From the NCBI GenBank assembly GCA_020060105.1, contig JAGVAV010000002.1, forward strand, positions 6,186 to 70,185: DNA of 64,000 nt, read 5' to 3'. Source of the stretch: Candidatus Woesebacteria bacterium (GTDB lineage Bacteria > Patescibacteriota > Microgenomatia > Woykebacterales > 2-01-FULL-43-14). Each line of letters opens with the position of its first letter. The stretch's first letter is position 1. Shown here piece after piece: positions 2,192 through 63,096 of this stretch. Position numbers and translations under genes: made by a program. The notes under the pieces are model-generated. The model ran no database searches. It had not been told where the DNA came from and saw only the letters and a list, made by a program, of their open reading frames with translations.

Positions 2192-2673
2192 TACCCCACT
2201 ACCTCAGGTAAATGCTCCTTAACCTTTTTCACTATTTCCCGTTGAACCTGCGCCATCACTACAGATTCTTGAGGTTTTTGATGATCGTGTCCCAATAAAT
2301 GTAAAACACCGTGAACTAGTAAATCAGCCAATCTTTCTTCTACCAAAACGTTATCTTCGGCAGCTTGAAGTAACGCTTGAGGATAAGAAATTACTACATC
2401 CCCCAGATTTAAAATTTTGAAATCTGGCGGGTTTACAAACTGCTTCTTACCCTCAGCCAAAGAAAACGAAAGAACATCCGTCGTGTTTTCCACCCCTCGA
2501 TACTGTTTATTAAGCTTTTTCATTTTTCGATCCCCAATCACGCTAACCGTAAGGGCAATTTTTCCTTGAGCACCAACCGACTCTAAAGCAATCGTTGCTA
2601 CGTTACGCAGCAGAGCTCTTTTAACAGGATAGTGGGGTTCGATAAAAACTTCAACTTGATACATTTTAGCCAC
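2191..2673 (-). CDS. ybeY: rRNA maturation endoribonuclease YbeY
   Basis: HGVLHLLGHDH zinc-binding motif; size about 160 aa. Confidence 0.88.
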   Translation of the reverse strand: MAKMYQVEVFIEPHYPVKRALLRNVATIALESVGAQGKIALTVSVIGDRKMKKLNKQYRGVENTTDVLSFSLAEGKKQFVNPPDFKILNLGDVVISYPQALLQAAEDNVLVEERLADLLVHGVLHLLGHDHQKPQESVVMAQVQREIVKKVKEHLPEVVG

Positions 2674-8547: not shown

Positions 8548-9192
8548 TTACATACTTCTTAAATTCTTTTTCAACTGCTTATACTTCGGACTTTTTTTAA
8601 GAATATCAATTATTTCTTCTTTAACAATCTCTTTACTTCTCTCTCCGTCAACCACCTTAATTGACCTGGGATATTTATTTGCTAGAGCTTCGTAAACCTG
8701 CCAAACCTTCACTAACTTTTTCTCTTCTTCATATAACTCCACATCAAACCTATCTCGTTTTATCCGATTCATACAAACAGTGGGACTAACTCGGATAAAA
8801 AAAGAAATATCTGGGTAAATAAAGTACTTGTTTAACTCTAAAGCCCAGTTCGTATCAACATCCACAGAACCAAAAGCCACGGTTGACCAAGCAAAACGAT
8901 CTGTTATCACAACACTCCCACTTTTCAACATCGGAATAATTTCTCTAGATAAGTGGTGCCCCCGATCGGCCGCAAAGAGAAGTTGCAGCGATGTGGGAGG
9001 AAGACTTAAGGTGTTAGTTAACACCCCCCTTATCAAGCCACCTACCACATTATTGGTCGGCTCTTTAGTCGTGTATGTTCGGATTCCTTCTCTTTTCAAA
9101 AATTCCGCGATTAAAGAACATTGTGTTGAGGAACCACTCCCATCCAGCCCTTCAACATCAATAAATAAACCAGGAAATTCGTTTTTAACCAT
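8548..9192 (-). CDS. tmk: Thymidylate kinase
   Basis: EGLDGSGSST P-loop region, DRY/R lid, dTMP kinase family. Confidence 0.88.
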   Translation of the reverse strand: MVKNEFPGLFIDVEGLDGSGSSTQCSLIAEFLKREGIRTYTTKEPTNNVVGGLIRGVLTNTLSLPPTSLQLLFAADRGHHLSREIIPMLKSGSVVITDRFAWSTVAFGSVDVDTNWALELNKYFIYPDISFFIRVSPTVCMNRIKRDRFDVELYEEEKKLVKVWQVYEALANKYPRSIKVVDGERSKEIVKEEIIDILKKSPKYKQLKKNLRSM

Positions 9193-25862: not shown

Positions 25863-25879
25863 ACTAGATATAATGACAA

Positions 25880-26034
25880 CTTAATTGAATATAACCAAAG
25901 ACAGTAGGTGCTTTTGTAATTGCTTAAGCTTAATATTTTCCTACCGAGGTTTTATCCAACGCTTGCAACATGTGAGTACCTCGGGTCTTCCCGAGGTTTT
26001 TCATTTAAATGGCCGTCTTAGGAGGTAACAAAAC
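25880..26034 (+). promoter_or_regulatory. rplJ (L10) leader: structured 5' UTR with an attenuator-like hairpin, the likely L10(L12)4 autoregulatory site
   Basis: A 170-nt gap between rplA and rplJ. Hairpins TACCGAGG...CCTCGGGT and CTCGGG-TCTT-CCCGAG followed by TTTTTC. AGGAGG Shine-Dalgarno. Confidence 0.5.
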
Positions 26035-26987: not shown

Positions 26988-27060
26988 CTTCTAATATCTC
27001 AAAATACGTCAATACATAACACGACCGTAATAACAGTATGCGTTTTGACGAACCGCTTAA

Positions 27061-27093
27061 CGAAAACCCCAAGTGGGGTTTTCGTTTTTATTC
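27061..27093 (+). terminator. Rho-independent terminator after rplL
   Basis: CGAAAACCCC-AAGT-GGGGTTTTCG followed by TTTTTATT. Confidence 0.8.
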
Positions 27094-27168
27094 TTGAACT
27101 ATTGACAAGTATGATATGTTATGATAGCGTAAATCATATAGAGAGTGACTGCCTGTTTAGGAGGGCTT

Positions 27169-27477: not shown

Positions 27478-28545
27478 TTATTCCCATATTTCCGTAATGG
27501 ACAGATAGGCCAGTAAATAGCAAATAATTGATTCTGCGCCTTGATTTAAATTTACCCCCTCAGAAGTAAGACCGTCAAAACAGCCCCCTGTCACTTCATC
27601 GTGTAAGGGTATTTCTTTTAGGTTATTTCCATGAAACCAAGAAAACCAAAAAATAGCTTTCTCCTTAAAAATTTTATCCTTGGTGATCTTATAGGCAATA
27701 GAGCTTGCTAACACTAAATAAGCAGGGTCTATGGCTTGCTGGTCATACAAAGCTCTGCTCTTTCCTTTACAGTACCAGCCATTTTGACCGACTGGAGAAG
27801 GCTTTCCGTTCACAGTGCAAACCTCGAATAAAAAGTCCAAACTTTCAGTCGCCACCTTCAAATACTCTTCGTCTTTAGTTGCCAAATAAGAAAGAAGTAG
27901 GGCGTAGGGAAAAACCGCGTTTCCGTAAGTAACTCCTTTTTCAAACCAACGCCACTTGCTGAAGCTGTTTTTCTTAAATAAGGATATCAAATCATTACTT
28001 AAACTAATCAATGACTTTCTAAACTGTTCATTTTGAGGTTCCTTTTGAGACAAAAAGGCTAATCCTAGTAAGGTATATGCTTTAGCTCTAGGGTATGTTA
28101 AATACCTAATGTTTGGTAAAACCTCCGCGGCTAAGTAACTTGACTGGAGAGTGATATCTCTTCTAACCCCGGCAAAGGCCGCAAAACCGAGAGACCAAAA
28201 AGCCCTCCCAAAACAGTCCTGAGATCTGGCTTCATCTAAAAAACGATGGTCAAAGCTGAGAAAATTAAAAAAATCGCCTTCCTCGGTCTTGGCGTGAGAA
28301 ATAAAGGACAGATAAATTAAAGCTAGATCTAAAGTCGTCTGGTTTTTAAACAGTAAATTTAGCCAAACACTCACGACAAATGCGCGAGAATTATCGTCTA
28401 AAGTATAACCAAGTTTACGGTCTGGTACCGCGTATTTTGCATGTTGGATTATTCCGGTGGGAGTTGTAAGTCGCTCCAAGTATCGAATATCGGGGGGTAA
28501 CTTAAAGTTAATGTTTTTGAGATAGTCTTGATATTTAGCTTCCAT
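27478..28545 (-). CDS. Hypothetical protein co-transcribed with a GT4 glycosyltransferase. Possibly a glycosidase-like alpha/alpha-toroid protein, but the family is not recognised.
   Basis: The 355-aa ORF overlaps the upstream GT4 gene by 11 nt. Motifs GYTLDDNSRAF and NQGAES are suggestive only. Confidence 0.5.
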   Translation of the reverse strand: MEAKYQDYLKNINFKLPPDIRYLERLTTPTGIIQHAKYAVPDRKLGYTLDDNSRAFVVSVWLNLLFKNQTTLDLALIYLSFISHAKTEEGDFFNFLSFDHRFLDEARSQDCFGRAFWSLGFAAFAGVRRDITLQSSYLAAEVLPNIRYLTYPRAKAYTLLGLAFLSQKEPQNEQFRKSLISLSNDLISLFKKNSFSKWRWFEKGVTYGNAVFPYALLLSYLATKDEEYLKVATESLDFLFEVCTVNGKPSPVGQNGWYCKGKSRALYDQQAIDPAYLVLASSIAYKITKDKIFKEKAIFWFSWFHGNNLKEIPLHDEVTGGCFDGLTSEGVNLNQGAESIICYLLAYLSITEIWE

Positions 28546-29725
28546 TTTCTTTTGCTACCAAACAAAACAAATCAAGGTGCTTCAAGGCCACGTTAGACCA
28601 AGTCATGTGCCGACCATAACCGTAGGCTTTCCTTTCCATATTTTCTTTAACCGCCAACTCCTCCAAAAGGTTCCTCACAGCCTCTGAAACCGCACCAGAA
28701 TCCCTAAACGGAACTAAGTAACCTCGTCCGTTAGCCAAAGCCTCTTTAGCGTAAACATAGGGAGTGGAAACGCAAGTTTTCCCTGCCCCTATCGCGTAAG
28801 CGAGAGCCCCACTAGTAATTTGTTGAGGATCTAAGTAAGGGGTAATATAAATATCTGTGGCTCTTAAATAAGAAATTAACTCTCCAAGTGGTAGATAACG
28901 ATTAATAAATCTAACGTTTTCTTCAACCTTCAATTCCTTTACCAATTTTTCCAGGTAAAGCCGATACCTCTCACCTTCACTCTTTTGAACTACAGGATGA
29001 GTTTTACCTATAACTAAATACAACACCTTTGGGTGCTTGGCTAGAATTTCTGGCATCGCCTTAATAACGTACTCTACTCCTTTGTTTGAAGATAGTAAAT
29101 TTATTGTTGCTAAAATTGAATAATCCTGCAGATTAAGTGCTACTTTATGAGGCAACGACGGGCCTAAAGGTATATCCGGGACGCCGTGATAAATAGTCAC
29201 AATCTTCCTTTTACTTACTCCGTATATTTTATTTAATCTTTCCGCGGCACAGTGAACCATGACAATAATTGCTTTAGACATACGTGCAACCCTCTCCACA
29301 ACCGCCACCTGTTGAGGATCAGGCTTATCTAAGACAGTATGAAACGTGGTTACAACCGGTCGACGAATTTTTTCCAAAAAAGAAACGATATGTTCACCGT
29401 ACTGCCCGCCGAATAAACCAAATTCGTGCTGAATGCTAACTAACTCTGCTCCCGACTGATTAATATAGTTAGCGGCATCAGAATAACTCTGATTATCGTT
29501 TTGGGCTATTCGAAACTTCACTTCCCAAGGGTAGTCATACTCTGCGTTCAAGTCATTAACAGCCATAATTTCTGCCAAAGCATCTGGGTTCAATTCGTTT
29601 ATTGCCGTAGTCAAATCCTTTGTATAAGTAGCTATCCCACACTGCCTAGGAATGTAACTTGACACATAAATTACTTTTACCTTGCGTTCTTTCTTGTCAA
29701 GCTTTTTTCGATAATATTTAACCAT
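28535..29725 (-). CDS. GT4-family glycosyltransferase
   Basis: Glycos_transf_1 C-domain. The start is taken at the ATG (MVKYYRKK...) positioned right after a strong promoter, which makes the mRNA leaderless or nearly so. Confidence 0.8.
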   Translation of the reverse strand: MVKYYRKKLDKKERKVKVIYVSSYIPRQCGIATYTKDLTTAINELNPDALAEIMAVNDLNAEYDYPWEVKFRIAQNDNQSYSDAANYINQSGAELVSIQHEFGLFGGQYGEHIVSFLEKIRRPVVTTFHTVLDKPDPQQVAVVERVARMSKAIIVMVHCAAERLNKIYGVSKRKIVTIYHGVPDIPLGPSLPHKVALNLQDYSILATINLLSSNKGVEYVIKAMPEILAKHPKVLYLVIGKTHPVVQKSEGERYRLYLEKLVKELKVEENVRFINRYLPLGELISYLRATDIYITPYLDPQQITSGALAYAIGAGKTCVSTPYVYAKEALANGRGYLVPFRDSGAVSEAVRNLLEELAVKENMERKAYGYGRHMTWSNVALKHLDLFCLVAKENGS

Positions 29726-29732
29726 GATATGT

Positions 29733-29761
29733 ATAATACTACTTTGTAGCAAATCTTTCAA
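29733..29761 (-). promoter_or_regulatory. Sigma70-like promoter for the GT4-hypothetical operon: TTGAAA, 17 nt, TATTAT. The TSS falls at or next to the start codon.
   Basis: Minus-strand hexamers with a 17-nt spacer. The -10 element ends 7 nt before the ATG. Confidence 0.5.
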
Positions 29762-29854
29762 GATAAGTCCTGTCTAGTCGTGGGTCCGAAAAAATGTACT
29801 AAACCCCCCGTTAAACCTCTTGACAGGGTCAAAAATTTATGAGATTATAAATAG

Positions 29855-30045
29855 GTAAGGTATTGGCTGAAAGGTCGATAGCTTGAGGAACCCAACGGGG
29901 AGTACGTTAACAATTTGCCCCACTCTCCAAGTCCATAAACCTCTACTTGCTAGAGTTAGTTGGGCTTCCTTTAAGAAACTTTGAAATAAAAACAACCGTA
30001 ACATATTTGAACCCCTAGTCCGAGGACTAGGGGTTCTTTAATTAT
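29855..30045 (+). ncRNA. Candidate small non-coding RNA of about 190 nt, with its own promoter and intrinsic terminator, lying between two minus-strand GT4 genes
   Basis: Plus-strand promoter TTGACA(29820), 17 nt, GATTAT. No ATG anywhere in the transcribed stretch. Perfect 13-bp hairpin GAACCCCTAGTCC-GA-GGACTAGGGGTTC followed by TTTAATTAT at 30009..30045. Confidence 0.35.
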
Positions 30046-30097
30046 CGAGACTAAGACAAGGTTACTTTGTGTTGATTGTCTGCGTGTCAGCAGTCTT

Positions 30098-31240
30098 TTA
30101 TCTTTTCGCGTAAACCTTCTCAAAAACACTTAGCGTTTCTGCCGCACACTTATCCCAAGAGAATGTTTTCACTCGTTTAAGTCCCTTTGACCTCAAAACG
30201 TTTCTCAGGTTATTGTCCGTTACAACTCGATAAAGAGCGGCGGCAATATCGTCAACGTCGTAGGGGTTCACTAAAATCACCGCCTCCCCTCCAACTTCCG
30301 GGAGGCTGGAAACATTCGAAGTAACCACAGGACACTCACACGCCATCGCTTCCAACACAGGCAACCCGAAACCCTCAAATAAGCTAGGTAGAACAAGCGC
30401 TTCTGCTGATGAATATAGTATTGGTAGATCTTCGTCCGTCACGTAATTAACAAACTTAACCTTATCCGCCAAGTTGAGCTTCTCAGGAAGTTTATATATC
30501 TCCTCGTTTAACCACCCTGACTTACCAACTAGTACCAAATCAATACCAGCTTTCTTTCCCGCCAACAAAGAGTAAGCCTTAATTAAACGTACTAAATTTT
30601 TCCGCGGTTGGATTGTTCCCACAAAAAGGAGGTACTTCTCACCTAATCCGTACTTTAACTTAACCTCCTTTTTCTTACCTGGATCTTTAACCGGTTTAAA
30701 CAAGCTATCATCAAAACCCTCGTGTATCACCGTCACCCTCTCCGGATCGATAGAAAACCGACTCAGTAAATTCTTCTTTGTGAACTCTGAAACAGCAATT
30801 ATATGCGTAGCAAAACGAGTCGCGTAACCAGTCGACCAGTTTAAATAAAATTTACTGGTAAAATTACGCCTATCCTCGTTACCTAAATCATGAATAGTAA
30901 CAATCGTCTTTAACGCGGGCTTACGAATCACTGGTAACGCATGTGCGGGGACAAATAGAACGTCTGGAGGATAAACTAAACATTCCGCCGCCAACCCTAA
31001 TTGTGTCCATAATCTTGGCAACTTAATTAATCGAGTGCTAACATTGCTCAGCTTGTTAGAAACTTCACTCACAACCTGTAACTTCTCTAGGAAGGGGTCG
31101 TCACAATAAGGGCTTAAATAGAGAATGAAATGATTCCTTTTGTCTATCTTAATCAAAGACTTGACTAAATTGTAACTGTAGTTTTCTGTACCCGTCCGTT
31201 CTCGAGTAAACGCACGGCTTGCATCAATCCCAACACGCAT
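30098..31240 (-). CDS. GT4-family glycosyltransferase
   Basis: Classic GT-B fold and EX7E region (LPSLFEGFGLPVLEAMACECPVV). Confidence 0.85.
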   Translation of the reverse strand: MRVGIDASRAFTRERTGTENYSYNLVKSLIKIDKRNHFILYLSPYCDDPFLEKLQVVSEVSNKLSNVSTRLIKLPRLWTQLGLAAECLVYPPDVLFVPAHALPVIRKPALKTIVTIHDLGNEDRRNFTSKFYLNWSTGYATRFATHIIAVSEFTKKNLLSRFSIDPERVTVIHEGFDDSLFKPVKDPGKKKEVKLKYGLGEKYLLFVGTIQPRKNLVRLIKAYSLLAGKKAGIDLVLVGKSGWLNEEIYKLPEKLNLADKVKFVNYVTDEDLPILYSSAEALVLPSLFEGFGLPVLEAMACECPVVTSNVSSLPEVGGEAVILVNPYDVDDIAAALYRVVTDNNLRNVLRSKGLKRVKTFSWDKCAAETLSVFEKVYAKR

Positions 31241-49758: not shown

Positions 49759-49825
49759 GATAATTGTCTCAAGACAGGGATTTTGAAAATCCCTGTCTTG
49801 AGACCCGATTCGCCTCAAGTGAATC
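49759..49825 (-). terminator. Tandem hairpins between the DUF11 surface-protein gene and the rho promoter: a 39-bp perfect palindrome plus an 8-bp-stem hairpin
   Basis: GTCTCAAGACAGGGATTTT-GAAA-ATCCCTGTCTTGAGAC, and CCCGATTC...GAATCGGG. They sit immediately upstream of a TTGACA -35 element for rho. Confidence 0.5.
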
Positions 49826-49838
49826 GGGTTACTCAAGC

Positions 49839-50984
49839 TTAGCCGAGAAACCTTCTTAAAGCCCAACCAAGGGGCGCTAAACCTGTTAATAAAAGCGTTG
49901 GAATACTTTCCGGACCGGCTTTTGGCAATTCTTTCACGACAACTTTTTCTACTTCCACTGGTTTTACGACAACTTTCTCTACAGGTTTTTCGACGACTTT
50001 CTCGACTACTTTTTCCACAGGCTTCTCAATTACTTTTTCGACTACTTTCACCCCCTGCGGCACTACGGCAACTACCTGAACTGCACTAATCTTCCACTCA
50101 GGGTGTTCGTCAGCCTTCATCCAAGCAACATTTTCTAGTATCTCACCATTCTTAACGTCGTCTTTAATCCTAACCCTAAACCTAATAACCCAATCTTTAT
50201 CCTGAAGAAGGTTCCCTAGATTCACCCCGTCTCTAAGCCAATCATCGGTAATGTTAATTGTTTCACCGTCACGAGTAGCCGTTGTCGAGCCGGAAATATA
50301 ATCTACTCTAAGAGGCTCACTACTATTTGAACGATCAAGATTTGGAAGGTAGTTGGCAACGTAGACGTGGTTTAAAGGAACATTACTCATGTTGCTAATC
50401 TTGATCGTATATTCCAACTCCTCTCCAGGTCTAACCGAACTCCTGTCGGCATAGGTAAATAGAGCCACAACTACTTTAGGAACTCTTACTTTAGTCGCCG
50501 CTACAGAACGCTCCCAATTAGGTAATTCATCAGTCTTCGCGTTTATAATCACCTGAACAAACTCCCCATCGGTCATATCGTTGTTCACTGTCGCCTCAAA
50601 AGTAATCGTTAAGGTCATCCCCGCAGCAAAAATTCCAAAGTTGTTTTCTTCACCCACCCAAGCTTCTGGTAAGGAATGAGTTACGTTATCAGTACTTCGA
50701 ACATATTGCCCCGAACCAGCAACATAAGTCGCACCTACCCACTGAGGAGAAACCTTCAAACTATTCATGGCAACTCCTCCCGTATTAGTAATTCTTGCGG
50801 TGTAGGTCAGTGTCTCACCCAAGTTGGCCCAACCTTTGTCAACCGTGTTTTCAACTGTAAAGGCAGGAGATGATTCAGCTTCAGTCAGGGACGAGGAAAC
50901 AAGGTTACTTCCGATAAACAGACTGCTAAAAGCCAAAACTACACTTAGAGATTTTGCAATTAATTTGTTAATCTTTTCTAACAT
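49839..50984 (-). CDS. Secreted cell-surface protein with DUF11-like repeat domains, a (VEKx)n stalk, and a C-terminal sorting signal (LPKAG, hydrophobic segment, RRFLG)
   Basis: Signal peptide, repeated ...TYT.RITNTGG... modules, and a tripartite C-terminal signal typical of sortase or exosortase substrates. Confidence 0.6.
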   Translation of the reverse strand: MLEKINKLIAKSLSVVLAFSSLFIGSNLVSSSLTEAESSPAFTVENTVDKGWANLGETLTYTARITNTGGVAMNSLKVSPQWVGATYVAGSGQYVRSTDNVTHSLPEAWVGEENNFGIFAAGMTLTITFEATVNNDMTDGEFVQVIINAKTDELPNWERSVAATKVRVPKVVVALFTYADRSSVRPGEELEYTIKISNMSNVPLNHVYVANYLPNLDRSNSSEPLRVDYISGSTTATRDGETINITDDWLRDGVNLGNLLQDKDWVIRFRVRIKDDVKNGEILENVAWMKADEHPEWKISAVQVVAVVPQGVKVVEKVIEKPVEKVVEKVVEKPVEKVVVKPVEVEKVVVKELPKAGPESIPTLLLTGLAPLGWALRRFLG

Positions 50985-51173: not shown

Positions 51174-52745
51174 CTAAGGCAGAGGTGTGTTAGTTGGCCC
51201 GGGCACCGCTGTAGGCGGTGGTGGTGGCGGTACTCCAGGTGTAGGCGGAGGAACCGTCGGTTGGGCTGTTGCTACCTCTGTCGGCGACGGATTAGGAACC
51301 ACAGGCGTTTTCACCACCTTCGTCGGAGTGCGATTATCGCCTGGATTTCTCGGCGTTGGCGACGGTGGTGCAGTAGGGGTGTTTGTTGGCGCCGCCGGTA
51401 TTGGAGTGTGTGTTGGCGTCGGCACTCCCGGAGGCACCGGCGTCGGTGTAGCCGTTGGCCCCACTGGAGGCACCGGTGTCGGTGTTGGCCCCACTGGCGG
51501 CACCGGCGTGGAAGTTGGCGCGGCCGGAGGCGGCGGGGGCGGAGGTGGAGCAGTAGTTACATTGAAAAACTCCAACTGCTCGACCAATCCGGGTTTTAGG
51601 ACCGCCAGTTGGCGGGTTCCTTTAAGAACCGCCCGAAATCGCCCGGCGCCTAATTGGTTAACATCCTCGCTAACTTCGACCACAACCGAGGAACGGCCCT
51701 CGGCAAACCACTCCCGAGGAGCTTCAAAGATTACTTCCCCAGCGTCGCCCGTGACAACGAAGCGATCAAACCCAAGATCGGGGTCCACCGTCCTGATCCT
51801 AAATTGCCAACCGCTTCGTTGGACAAATTTTTGAACTCCATCCGGCGTTTCGTCAATGAACTTAGTCACTTTCAGAAACGCTTTCTCGACGGGGATGAGT
51901 AGGTTAACGCAATTCCCGTCCAGAAAAAACACTTGTCCGTTCTTGAGAGTCACCTTTACGCCGGACACCCCAATGAACGGTCTGCTTCCCGAAGCAACAC
52001 TTCCGTCACTTCGAACGAAGTTTGTCTGGAAGGAACCGCTAAGGGAAACGTCATCAACCTGAAGGATGTCCGTCGGGCTGACGAGGATCCCTTGACGACC
52101 TAAGCCACTCGCCACGGCCAAACTTCGATTGGCATAAGTCCGACTGTCGACCCCACCCTGGACGATGTCATCACCCCTCCTCTGAGGAGGCGGAGCCTCC
52201 AACGCCGCTAACTTTTGGTCAATGACGTAAGGTTCGCCTAAGACGAACCGGGTCCCCGGAGAATAGTCGGGATGGTAACCCTTGGCTGTAAACTCCACAA
52301 AACCCATCCCCGGGGGAACCTCAATCTCGTAGCGACCCCCAAGGATAGTTGTGGTGTACTGTTTCGGCGGTTGGACTGTCCCAACCGGGGCAATCCGGAC
52401 AGTTACTTCCCCATAAGGAATCCGGATTCCCTCCTCATCCACCACCTCCCCCCGAATCCTCACCTTGTCAGGGATTTTAGTTGGGGTCAGGGTCGGGGTC
52501 GGGGTAGTGGTACTCGTTGCGGTGAGGGTAGGAGTTGGAGGAACAACCGCTGTCGCGGTTGCCTCCGCCGGTCCCGTTCTCGTAAAGGGGTTGGCCCAAA
52601 ACCACCCCGCTAAAAAAAGGACGATCACTGCGACGGACAATAAGATGTTTCGACCACCTCGCCAGGTTCGCACGGCTCTCTCCTTTCTCTTTAAACTGTT
52701 AGGTACTTTCTCTCCCCTTTCCGAGGAAACCTTGTATCGGAACAA
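51174..52745 (-). CDS. Hypothetical membrane-anchored secreted protein with Pro/Thr-rich linkers and a carboxypeptidase-regulatory-like beta-sandwich. Markedly GC-rich.
   Basis: TTG start and an N-terminal TM. PTPTPVPPVG repeats. GC content is well above the roughly 40% background across the whole ORF. Confidence 0.6.
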   Translation of the reverse strand: MFRYKVSSERGEKVPNSLKRKERAVRTWRGGRNILLSVAVIVLFLAGWFWANPFTRTGPAEATATAVVPPTPTLTATSTTTPTPTLTPTKIPDKVRIRGEVVDEEGIRIPYGEVTVRIAPVGTVQPPKQYTTTILGGRYEIEVPPGMGFVEFTAKGYHPDYSPGTRFVLGEPYVIDQKLAALEAPPPQRRGDDIVQGGVDSRTYANRSLAVASGLGRQGILVSPTDILQVDDVSLSGSFQTNFVRSDGSVASGSRPFIGVSGVKVTLKNGQVFFLDGNCVNLLIPVEKAFLKVTKFIDETPDGVQKFVQRSGWQFRIRTVDPDLGFDRFVVTGDAGEVIFEAPREWFAEGRSSVVVEVSEDVNQLGAGRFRAVLKGTRQLAVLKPGLVEQLEFFNVTTAPPPPPPPPAAPTSTPVPPVGPTPTPVPPVGPTATPTPVPPGVPTPTHTPIPAAPTNTPTAPPSPTPRNPGDNRTPTKVVKTPVVPNPSPTEVATAQPTVPPPTPGVPPPPPPTAVPGPTNTPLP

Positions 52746-52859: not shown

Positions 52860-53007
52860 CTTATTTAGATCGAAACGTGCCAGTTCGAAAGTGATTTAAA
52901 CATCTATTTCTTAGCACCCAGTAAGAGTGTTACCCCAAACCAGATGCTAGGAAATAGACACTTTGCTTCCCTTTCTAGCACGAACTGTAAGCAATATATC
53001 ATACTTT

Positions 53008-53170
53008 TGTTATAATGTCAACTAGATGTAATGTTATACTAATACATCCGTCTTGATTTTTTATTAGTTTTCTGCTTATATAAACACAATAGGTACACCT
53101 GCTGTCCAGATGTACTTACAGCACCGCCATCGGCGTCCTTCTTCACTGGCCATGGTGGTGCTTCTTTTTA
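53008..53170 (+). ncRNA. Candidate small plus-strand transcript of about 150 nt (extended -10 promoter to intrinsic terminator). It may encode a 20-aa hydrophobic-tailed peptide.
   Basis: TGTTATAAT at 53008..53016. Terminator GCACCGCCAT...ATGGTGGTGC followed by TTCTTTTTA at 53121..53170. Small ORF MYLQHRHRRPSSLAMVVLLFI. Confidence 0.3.
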
Positions 53171-53385
53171 TCTAAATCCATTTATCCCAAGCGTCAACTA
53201 AATTTCGACTATCTTAGCATAAGGTCAATCGTTTGTCAAGTTTGTAAATCCTATAGCCATTGTCGACCCAAAAAATGTAGAAACCTATAATTATTTTAGC
53301 TTCAATTTTCGCCCTTTTATTAATTGTGGATAACTTGGGGAAATGTTTAACGGGAATAAAAACTTTCTTACAAGATGGGAAAAAA

Positions 53386-59464: not shown

Positions 59465-63010
<3,546 letters not shown>

Positions 63011-63096
63011 GCTATATTTGGCCTTCACCTTCTATTCAGTTTCTAGAGTGTTAATGAAACTAAATAAGATATTAAATTTTCAAAGAGCGAAAACTT

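Follow-up and report, generated by a model that had tools for sequence, protein, structure and literature searches.

A conserved intergenic locus in a cell-envelope gene cluster of Patescibacteria probably encodes a stand-alone structured non-coding RNA

We analyzed a 64-kb stretch of DNA (the window) from a Patescibacteria (CPR)-type genome, whose 23S rRNA gene (59468-63011, minus strand) spans 3.5 kb with large insertions and harbors a group I intron (60498-60735) scoring above the Rfam threshold. Patescibacteria have genomes of ~1 Mb with very little non-coding space and are almost all uncultured, and to our knowledge hardly any regulatory RNAs have been described from them. The region studied here lies between two glycosyltransferase genes, GT4-A and GT4-B, which both encode GT4 enzymes and, as the sequence-only reading of the window had stated, lie on the minus strand. 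The nearest named homologues of the flanking proteins are found in Woyke-, Woese- and Andersenbacteria and in Microgenomates. Gene calls for GT4-B differ, with NCBI predicting 408 residues from a TTG at 29761 and JGI 396 residues from an ATG at 29725. The latter is the conserved start, supported by the JGI call and by an N-terminus (MVKYYRKK) common to the homologue on Logan contig L008. The intergenic gap previously given as 335 bp is thus correct for the TTG start and becomes 372 bp for the conserved ATG. The following features were located in and around this gap:

28535-29725, minus strand: GT4-B, GT4 glycosyltransferase gene with conserved start ATG 29725
29733-29761, minus strand: divergent promoter of GT4-B, TTGAAA-17-TATTAT, conserved in L008 (4964-4992)
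29820-29825, plus strand: -35 hexamer TTGACA
29840-29848, plus strand: extended -10 element, TGA followed by GATTAT (29843-48), after a 17-nt spacer
29855-30045, plus strand: predicted transcript of ~190 nt, delimited by promoter and terminator
29861-29880, plus strand: P1 hairpin, UAUUGGCU-GAAA-GGUCGAUA, kept in L008
29885-29889, plus strand: 5' strand of helix P2, GAGGA, pairing with UUCCU 29967-29971 in a constrained fold
29897-29928, plus strand: hairpin A, with loop A (GUACGUUAACAAUUUG) at 29902-29917
29929-29967, plus strand: hairpin B, with outer stem, internal loop, inner stem CUCUA/UAGAG and apical loop
29967-29971, plus strand: 3' strand of helix P2, UUCCU, in the constrained fold
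29976-30008, plus strand: A-rich linker without predicted pairing, similar to one in L008
30009-30045, plus strand: intrinsic terminator with a 13-bp stem, a 2-nt loop and the tail UUUAAUUAU
30098-31240, minus strand: GT4-A, GT4 glycosyltransferase gene

We compared the locus to syntenic regions of related Patescibacteria. Among 5.8 billion proteins, GT4-B has a single homologue with more than 60% identity, the one encoded on L008, where the gene order is PEGA, MreB, GT4-A, WecG, a 293-bp gap and GT4-B, followed further on by L12/L10/L1/L11 genes. The L008 gap is 76% identical to that of the window, and the similarity spans the -35 hexamer, the TGAGATT block and the hairpin. A genome-contig search with GT4-B returned only distant relatives (at most 60% identity) and L001. 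In total, nine further distinct loci share the order MreB, GT4-A, WecG, gap, GT4-B. Besides L008 these are L001, L013, L014, L015, L016, L019, L020 and L021, in which GT4-B is 55-60% identical to the window protein (L017 duplicates L016), and the flanking proteins of relatives that keep the RNA region are 55-75% identical. All homologues were found through the neighboring GT4-B gene, and their distribution, copy number and linkage are biased accordingly. GT4-B homologues in another gene context (L009-L011, with an APH kinase gene upstream) lack the RNA. A search of metagenome contigs with a DNA pattern for loop A plus hairpin B, which was probably too strict, matched only L012, a short contig where the match lies between two convergent genes spaced 38 nt apart, without the other parts of the RNA; we rejected this match as due to chance.

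The gene cluster surrounding the RNA (MreB, GT4, WecG, RNA, GT4, GH88-like) is of the cell-envelope type. A wecG gene of the WecG/TagA family separates GT4-A from the RNA terminator in 9/9 relatives (3970-4707 in L008). The window has no wecG here: only 60 nt (30037-30097) lie between the terminator and the GT4-A stop codon, and wecG has apparently been lost here or relocated. We considered that the conserved intergenic block might be the remnant of a deleted wecG and discarded the idea, as the block coexists with an intact wecG in all nine relatives. The transcripts predicted from promoter and terminator positions differ in length between loci:

window: ~190 nt, the minimal form
L008: ~198 nt
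L013: ~290 nt
L021: ~300 nt
L001: ~310 nt
L019: ~330 nt
L016: ~430 nt
L015: ~470 nt
L020: ~470 nt
L014: ~710 nt

The plus-strand promoter proposed earlier (TTGACA, 17 nt, GATTAT) is present upstream of the predicted transcript, and the last three bases of its spacer read TGA. Its consensus match and its conservation mark it as a putative sigma-70-type promoter with an extended -10 element, for which we required TTGACA, a spacer of 17±1 nt, TGn and a -10 hexamer reading A and T at its second and sixth positions. All ten loci carry a perfect TTGACA in the corresponding place, antisense to the glycosyltransferase genes and followed after 17-18 nt by TGn and such a -10 hexamer (GATTAT, GATTCT, AATACT, AATAAT, CATATT or CATAGT). 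We counted four instances of TTGACA-N14-16-TGNNANNNT in the 64 kb versus 0.42 expected (~10-fold), a number reached by none of 100 shuffles, and the pattern marks the predicted RNA 5' end once in every syntenic locus. The three other matches, at 27102-27130 (plus strand), 52993-53021 (minus strand) and 53211-53239 (minus strand), are probably real promoters; the first of them lies just past a hairpin (27059-27086) downstream of a probable L7/L12 ORF. We placed the transcript start ~7 nt past the -10 hexamer and its end at the U-rich tail.

At the far end of the gap, the perfect 13-bp hairpin noted in the initial reading is present (GAACCCCTAGTCC-GA-GGACTAGGGGTTC, 30009-30036, followed by TTTAATTAT). 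It has the makeup of an intrinsic (Rho-independent) terminator, with 7 G-C among the 12 pairs counted by our scan, the tail TTTAATTAT and a hairpin ΔG of -22 kcal/mol. Perfect hairpins of at least 13 bp occur three times in the whole window, and one of the others, just downstream of the probable L7/L12 ORF (26577-26987), looks like the terminator of that ORF. Between the window and L008, the stem differs by two compensatory changes. In 10/10 loci the strongest hairpin with a T-tract is located on the RNA strand at the 3' end of the RNA, and the window U-tract (UUUAAUUAU) is the weakest of the family; the homologous hairpins are followed by stronger U-tracts, likewise on the RNA strand. According to the earlier reading, the hairpin cannot serve the upstream GT4 gene as a terminator. 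While its minus-strand side in the window is indeed not followed by a U-tract, this claim is too strong: the homologous hairpin abuts or overlaps the 3' end of wecG in the relatives and is flanked by U-tracts on both strands in L001, and the terminator hairpin thus probably works in both directions. In the window it may also act on GT4-A transcripts arriving from the other side. The arrangement resembles bidirectional intrinsic terminators between convergent units in that the RNA gene and GT4-A converge on hairpin 30009-30036; it differs in that the U-rich tail is present on the plus side only, and in that the hairpin is merely the 3' end of a larger conserved RNA.

We asked whether the transcribed stretch could encode a small protein. 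As noted before, it contains no ATG (3.3 expected from composition) and no GTG either between 29855 and 30045 on the plus strand. ORFs of 20-55 residues can be drawn on both strands, and a product could come from a minus-strand ORF of 55 amino acids (29837-30004) or from a TTG-initiated ORF on the plus strand, but an all-against-all comparison of stop-to-stop translations from the ten gaps revealed no peptide, in whatever frame, that the window shares with the other loci. Close pairs are equally similar in all frames, the window/L008 gap alignment contains frame-breaking indels, and the window ORFs, 55 residues at most, have neither a Pfam match nor a Shine-Dalgarno sequence. We therefore attach next to no probability to a protein-coding function.

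The plus-strand RNA is predicted to fold with a free energy of -61.6 kcal/mol (z = -4.2), and both the minimum-free-energy (MFE) and the comparative fold consist of P1, a multi-hairpin core, a linker and the terminator. P1 in L008 shows one compensatory change from A-U to G-C. The GGGG/CCCC pairing envisaged in the earlier reading is not the conserved structure. In the MFE fold of the window, an alternative helix (CCCAAC/GUUGGG) replaces the outer stem of hairpin B; this helix is not conserved, and we rejected it as the family structure. The comparative fold, with hairpin B enforced, lies only 3.9 kcal/mol above the minimum. All family members share a core of ~95 nt made up of loop A and hairpin B, and the peripheral parts vary. 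Loop A is recognizable in every member by a GCACNUUAAYAA-like motif, with closing stems that differ between members. The internal loop of hairpin B reads UAAAC (29936-40) opposite UUAGU (29956-60) in the window and UAAAC or UAGAC opposite UUAGY in 9/10 members; the exception, L013, has a divergent hairpin B (GAAAC/UGAGC) with a weak model score. Inspection by eye gave no convincing match between UAAAC/UUAGU and the K-turn, loop E/sarcin-ricin, 11-nt tetraloop receptor or UAA/GAN motifs. ACCUCY, which forms the 5' side of the inner stem, is similar to the anti-Shine-Dalgarno sequence of the 16S rRNA of this organism. A closing helix of the P2 type appears, with different sequences, in single-sequence folds of L008, L001, L013 and L016, and in the window it could be extended by CUU (29882-29884) and UAAG (29972-29975). 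It is likely, if less certain, that P2 closes hairpins A and B into a three-way junction; support for the helix is moderate because its alignment is ambiguous, with MAFFT misaligning the P2 strands between short and long forms. The hairpin A helix is likewise likely but less secure, and its support, like that of P2, comes mainly from single-sequence folds and from inspection by eye.

Hairpin B is the best supported element. In an eight-sequence alignment (A4), 90.8% of its cells are paired and 9 of 11 pairs show double compensatory changes, yielding a covariation score that 0 of 500 shuffles reached; the covariation is supported by only ten sequences from one clade, and for related sequences shuffle controls overstate significance. 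When the 3' partners are slid by 1-3 columns, only 13-45% of the cells pair. RNAalifold recovers the hairpin unprompted from a longer alignment. A covariance model of hairpin B only (R1) gave one strong match per syntenic locus in ~220 kb; it had no other strong match, be it in the rest of the window or in non-syntenic loci, and matched otherwise just twice, weakly within the L013 RNA and once in L006 (E about 3-4). L021 had been left out when R1 was built, and it is matched in the expected place and on the expected strand with 32.2 bits (E = 7e-7); this locus also carries the promoter, loop A and the terminator. A repeat or mobile element of the REP or MITE type was discarded, since the region is not repeated within the 64 kb and R1 finds a single strong match per syntenic locus; phage and plasmid matches to the region are absent as well. 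These results also bear on an alternative explanation for the locus, in which there is no functional RNA, the hairpin serves only as a (possibly bidirectional) GT4-A terminator, and the promoter hexamers are due to chance or to DNA-level regulation of GT4-B. The hairpin does lie 60 nt downstream of the GT4-A stop codon, and generic promoter and terminator scans of the 3-kb region show no enrichment (7 versus 5.8 expected and 2 versus 2.5 expected, respectively). We nevertheless consider this explanation very improbable, as the -35 and extended -10 elements are conserved in all ten loci, ~95 nt of covarying, strand-specific structure separate promoter and terminator, and the U-tracts consistently lie on the RNA strand.

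Several observations define the strand. Across the ten sequences, hairpin B contains eight G·U pairs and no A·C pairs. P1 has three G·U pairs in the window and two in L008; all of them would be mismatched on the opposite strand, where the P1 hairpin does not form. The plus strand folds better than the minus strand in the window (z = -4.2 versus -3.2) and in L008 (-3.8 versus -2.6). Judged by the G·U pairs of hairpin B and P1, which fit only the plus strand, and by the orientation of promoter and U-tract, the RNA is encoded on the plus strand of the window. This leaves little room for the alternative that the block represents a 5' leader or riboswitch of the GT4-B mRNA on the minus strand. Such a leader would explain why the conserved block directly precedes GT4-B in 8/10 loci and why the minus strand, too, has a more stable fold than shuffled sequence (z = -3.0 to -3.2). 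Two opposite-strand genes intervene between block and GT4-B in the two remaining loci, L014 and L016, however, and the G·U pairs would turn into A·C mismatches in a minus-strand transcript, which would also lack P1. Moreover, no conserved minus-strand promoter is found upstream of the block. GT4-B is instead served by TTGAAA-17-TATTAT, which ends 7 nt before the ATG in the window and 7-8 nt when L008 is included; a promoter next to the ATG argues against the conserved block being a GT4-B leader, and in keeping with its start lacking a Shine-Dalgarno sequence, the GT4-B mRNA is probably leaderless. The plus strand likewise offers no setting for a cis-regulatory leader or riboswitch, as only the antisense of GT4-A lies downstream of the RNA. 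Overall, a GT4-B leader appears extremely unlikely.

We searched for known RNA families in the region. With Rfam 15, no family matched 29600-30250 at the gathering threshold, and no match with an E-value below 0.07 was obtained in the region or, for that matter, any match in the homologous regions of the nine other loci; neither gathering nor permissive thresholds brought up anything relevant among 6S, SRP and the other models that the sequence-only reading had proposed to scan. The best sub-threshold matches, STnc630 (22.7 bits, cut-off 55) and CRISPR-DR66 (22.9 bits, cut-off 45), rest on the terminator hairpin. ARAGORN found no tmRNA or tRNA-like gene at the RNA and ten tRNAs elsewhere in the window. 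The candidate had been called an orphan small RNA, a term that is apt with respect to the databases and less so with respect to its relatives, as the RNA has a family of ten loci. One could argue that it is a highly divergent known RNA, such as 6S or SRP RNA, missed by Rfam models in CPR genomes. Its ~190-nt size, strong promoter and conservation, together with the absence of coding capacity, are indeed reminiscent of 6S RNA, and RNAs of CPR bacteria are often atypical, the insertions and intron in the 23S rRNA gene of the window being a case in point. We see only a very small chance of this: the RNA lacks the rod with a central bubble that defines 6S RNA, its 5' and 3' ends do not pair in either the MFE or the comparative fold, no 6S model matches, 190-710 nt is an unusual size range for 6S or SRP RNA, and ARAGORN finds no tmRNA.

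We next compared the RNA to other known classes. Trans-encoded bacterial sRNAs have their own sigma-70 promoter and Rho-independent terminator, and those of the RsaE/RoxS type contain C-rich loops. The window RNA shares with them a stand-alone intergenic gene of ~190 nt with promoter, terminator and no ORF, as well as C/U-rich, anti-Shine-Dalgarno-like segments (CCCCACUCUCC, AACCUCU). It differs in showing no sequence or covariance-model similarity, in a family length that varies nearly four-fold, and in its conserved part, which is no simple single-stranded seed but a covarying structured core whose internal loop is almost invariant; conserved unpaired stretches that a trans-acting base-pairing sRNA might use are loop A and the internal loop of hairpin B. 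Other orphan structured non-coding RNAs discovered by comparative genomics are the raiA motif RNA, OLE, ROOL and GOLLD (PMC12968392, PMC12286853). Like these, our RNA is lineage-restricted and apparently independently transcribed, with a conserved multi-helix core and a variable periphery. None of their Rfam models matches it, OLE, ROOL and GOLLD are much larger, and it is found in Patescibacteria at a fixed place in a cell-envelope cluster. Our literature search retrieved no relevant description of sRNAs or structured RNAs from Patescibacteria.

These findings together suggest that 29820-30045 on the plus strand is probably a gene for a stand-alone structured non-coding RNA, representing an undescribed family in a group of Patescibacteria (CPR). 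The view that the locus is an independent non-coding plus-strand transcription unit, conserved in related genomes, gains support from promoter, terminator orientation and covarying core in ten distinct syntenic loci, from the strand specificity of the G·U pairs and from the lack of a conserved ORF. The RNA would be released as a discrete transcript of ~190 nt and would act in trans through its own fold; loop A and the internal loop of hairpin B would offer their invariant unpaired nucleotides as a contact surface for a partner, most likely a protein, or possibly another RNA or a second copy of the same RNA. Invariant unpaired nucleotides combined with covarying helices typify RNAs that have a specific partner and a defined three-dimensional fold, more than they do fast-evolving sRNAs that pair by a seed. 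We favor a trans-acting structured RNA because its invariant unpaired nucleotides are framed by covarying helices and its periphery varies freely. The conserved position inside a cell-envelope gene cluster hints at a role tied to envelope glycopolymer synthesis.

A more specific version of this proposal concerns loop A, which contains a 6-nt self-complementary stretch in 7/10 members (GUUAAC, GUUAAU, UUUAAA or ACUAGU). A sequence that changes while self-complementarity is kept would fit kissing-loop homodimers or oligomers, as recently observed for ornate bacterial RNAs and also for some RNAs of less than 200 nt (PMC12286853; bioRxiv 10.64898/2026.07.01.735769). A Patescibacteria-specific RNA working through its three-dimensional fold and through self-association via loop A, perhaps in connection with envelope glycopolymers, is a speculative and rather unlikely scenario at present; if true, ultra-small bacteria would possess an assembly, RNA-only or RNP, of a new class.

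We give similarly little credence to a cis-antisense regulator, whose fold would be unimportant and which would act by complementarity to read-through transcripts from GT4-A or wecG into GT4-B, or by collision in convergent transcription. In its favor, the RNA runs antisense to the co-directional genes on either side of it within a single conserved cluster, no U-tract follows the window hairpin on the minus strand, making GT4-A read-through plausible, and the 3' end of the RNA overlaps that of wecG in L008 and L021. This overlap is not conserved (there is none in L015 and L019), GT4-B has its own promoter, and two genes separate the RNA from GT4-B in L014 and L016. Covarying stems around invariant loops reveal selection on the RNA's own fold. 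A non-coding region of 190-710 nt that is kept despite genome reduction points to an important function. Hairpin B, loop A and the fixed genomic position define a testable RNA family, which can be searched for across CPR genomes and metatranscriptomes and studied in vitro. The window RNA, as the minimal version, should be the most convenient member for structural and biochemical work.

The longer family members carry additional elements. At the start of the long forms, two hairpins exclude each other (CCUGCC.../GGCUGG, or GCUGGY...RCCAGC followed by U6), an arrangement that looks like an attenuator or a riboswitch expression platform; it is absent from the short form of the window and has no Rfam match. 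Farther inside, the long forms contain a perfect Shine-Dalgarno sequence, (U)AAGGAGGU, and after it AUG, only one or two more codons and a stop (MK*, MR*, MTE*):

L014 ~2800-2730, L016 ~1960-1915, L015 ~3770-3725, L020 ~2780-2735, all minus strand: mutually exclusive 5' hairpins
L014 ~2470-2445, L016 ~1742-1720, L015 ~3553-3530, L020 ~2555-2533, all minus strand: Shine-Dalgarno sequence and mini-ORF

Purine-rich, Shine-Dalgarno-like sequences are found downstream of the core in L001, L013, L019 and L021. The longest member, L014, contains ~3.5 identical tandem copies of a ~36-nt unit (CGCTTCGCGCTCTGCGTCTCGGACGACTAATGTT) at ~2270-2395 (minus strand).

Finally, we noted other elements in the window. 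A ribosomal protein L10 leader (RF00557) is located at 25877-26012 on the plus strand, and at 8597-8718 on the minus strand of L008. The longest hairpin in the window, at 49766-49804, is an inverted repeat of 19 perfectly matched bp around a loop of 1 nt (GTCTCAAGACAGGGATTTT / AAAATCCCTGTCTTGAGAC), and short tandem repeats lie next to it (49932-50048). At 51410-51550, probably within a coding region, the window contains degenerate repeats (GGCACCGGCGTCGGTGT-like) arranged in tandem with a period of 30-36 nt.
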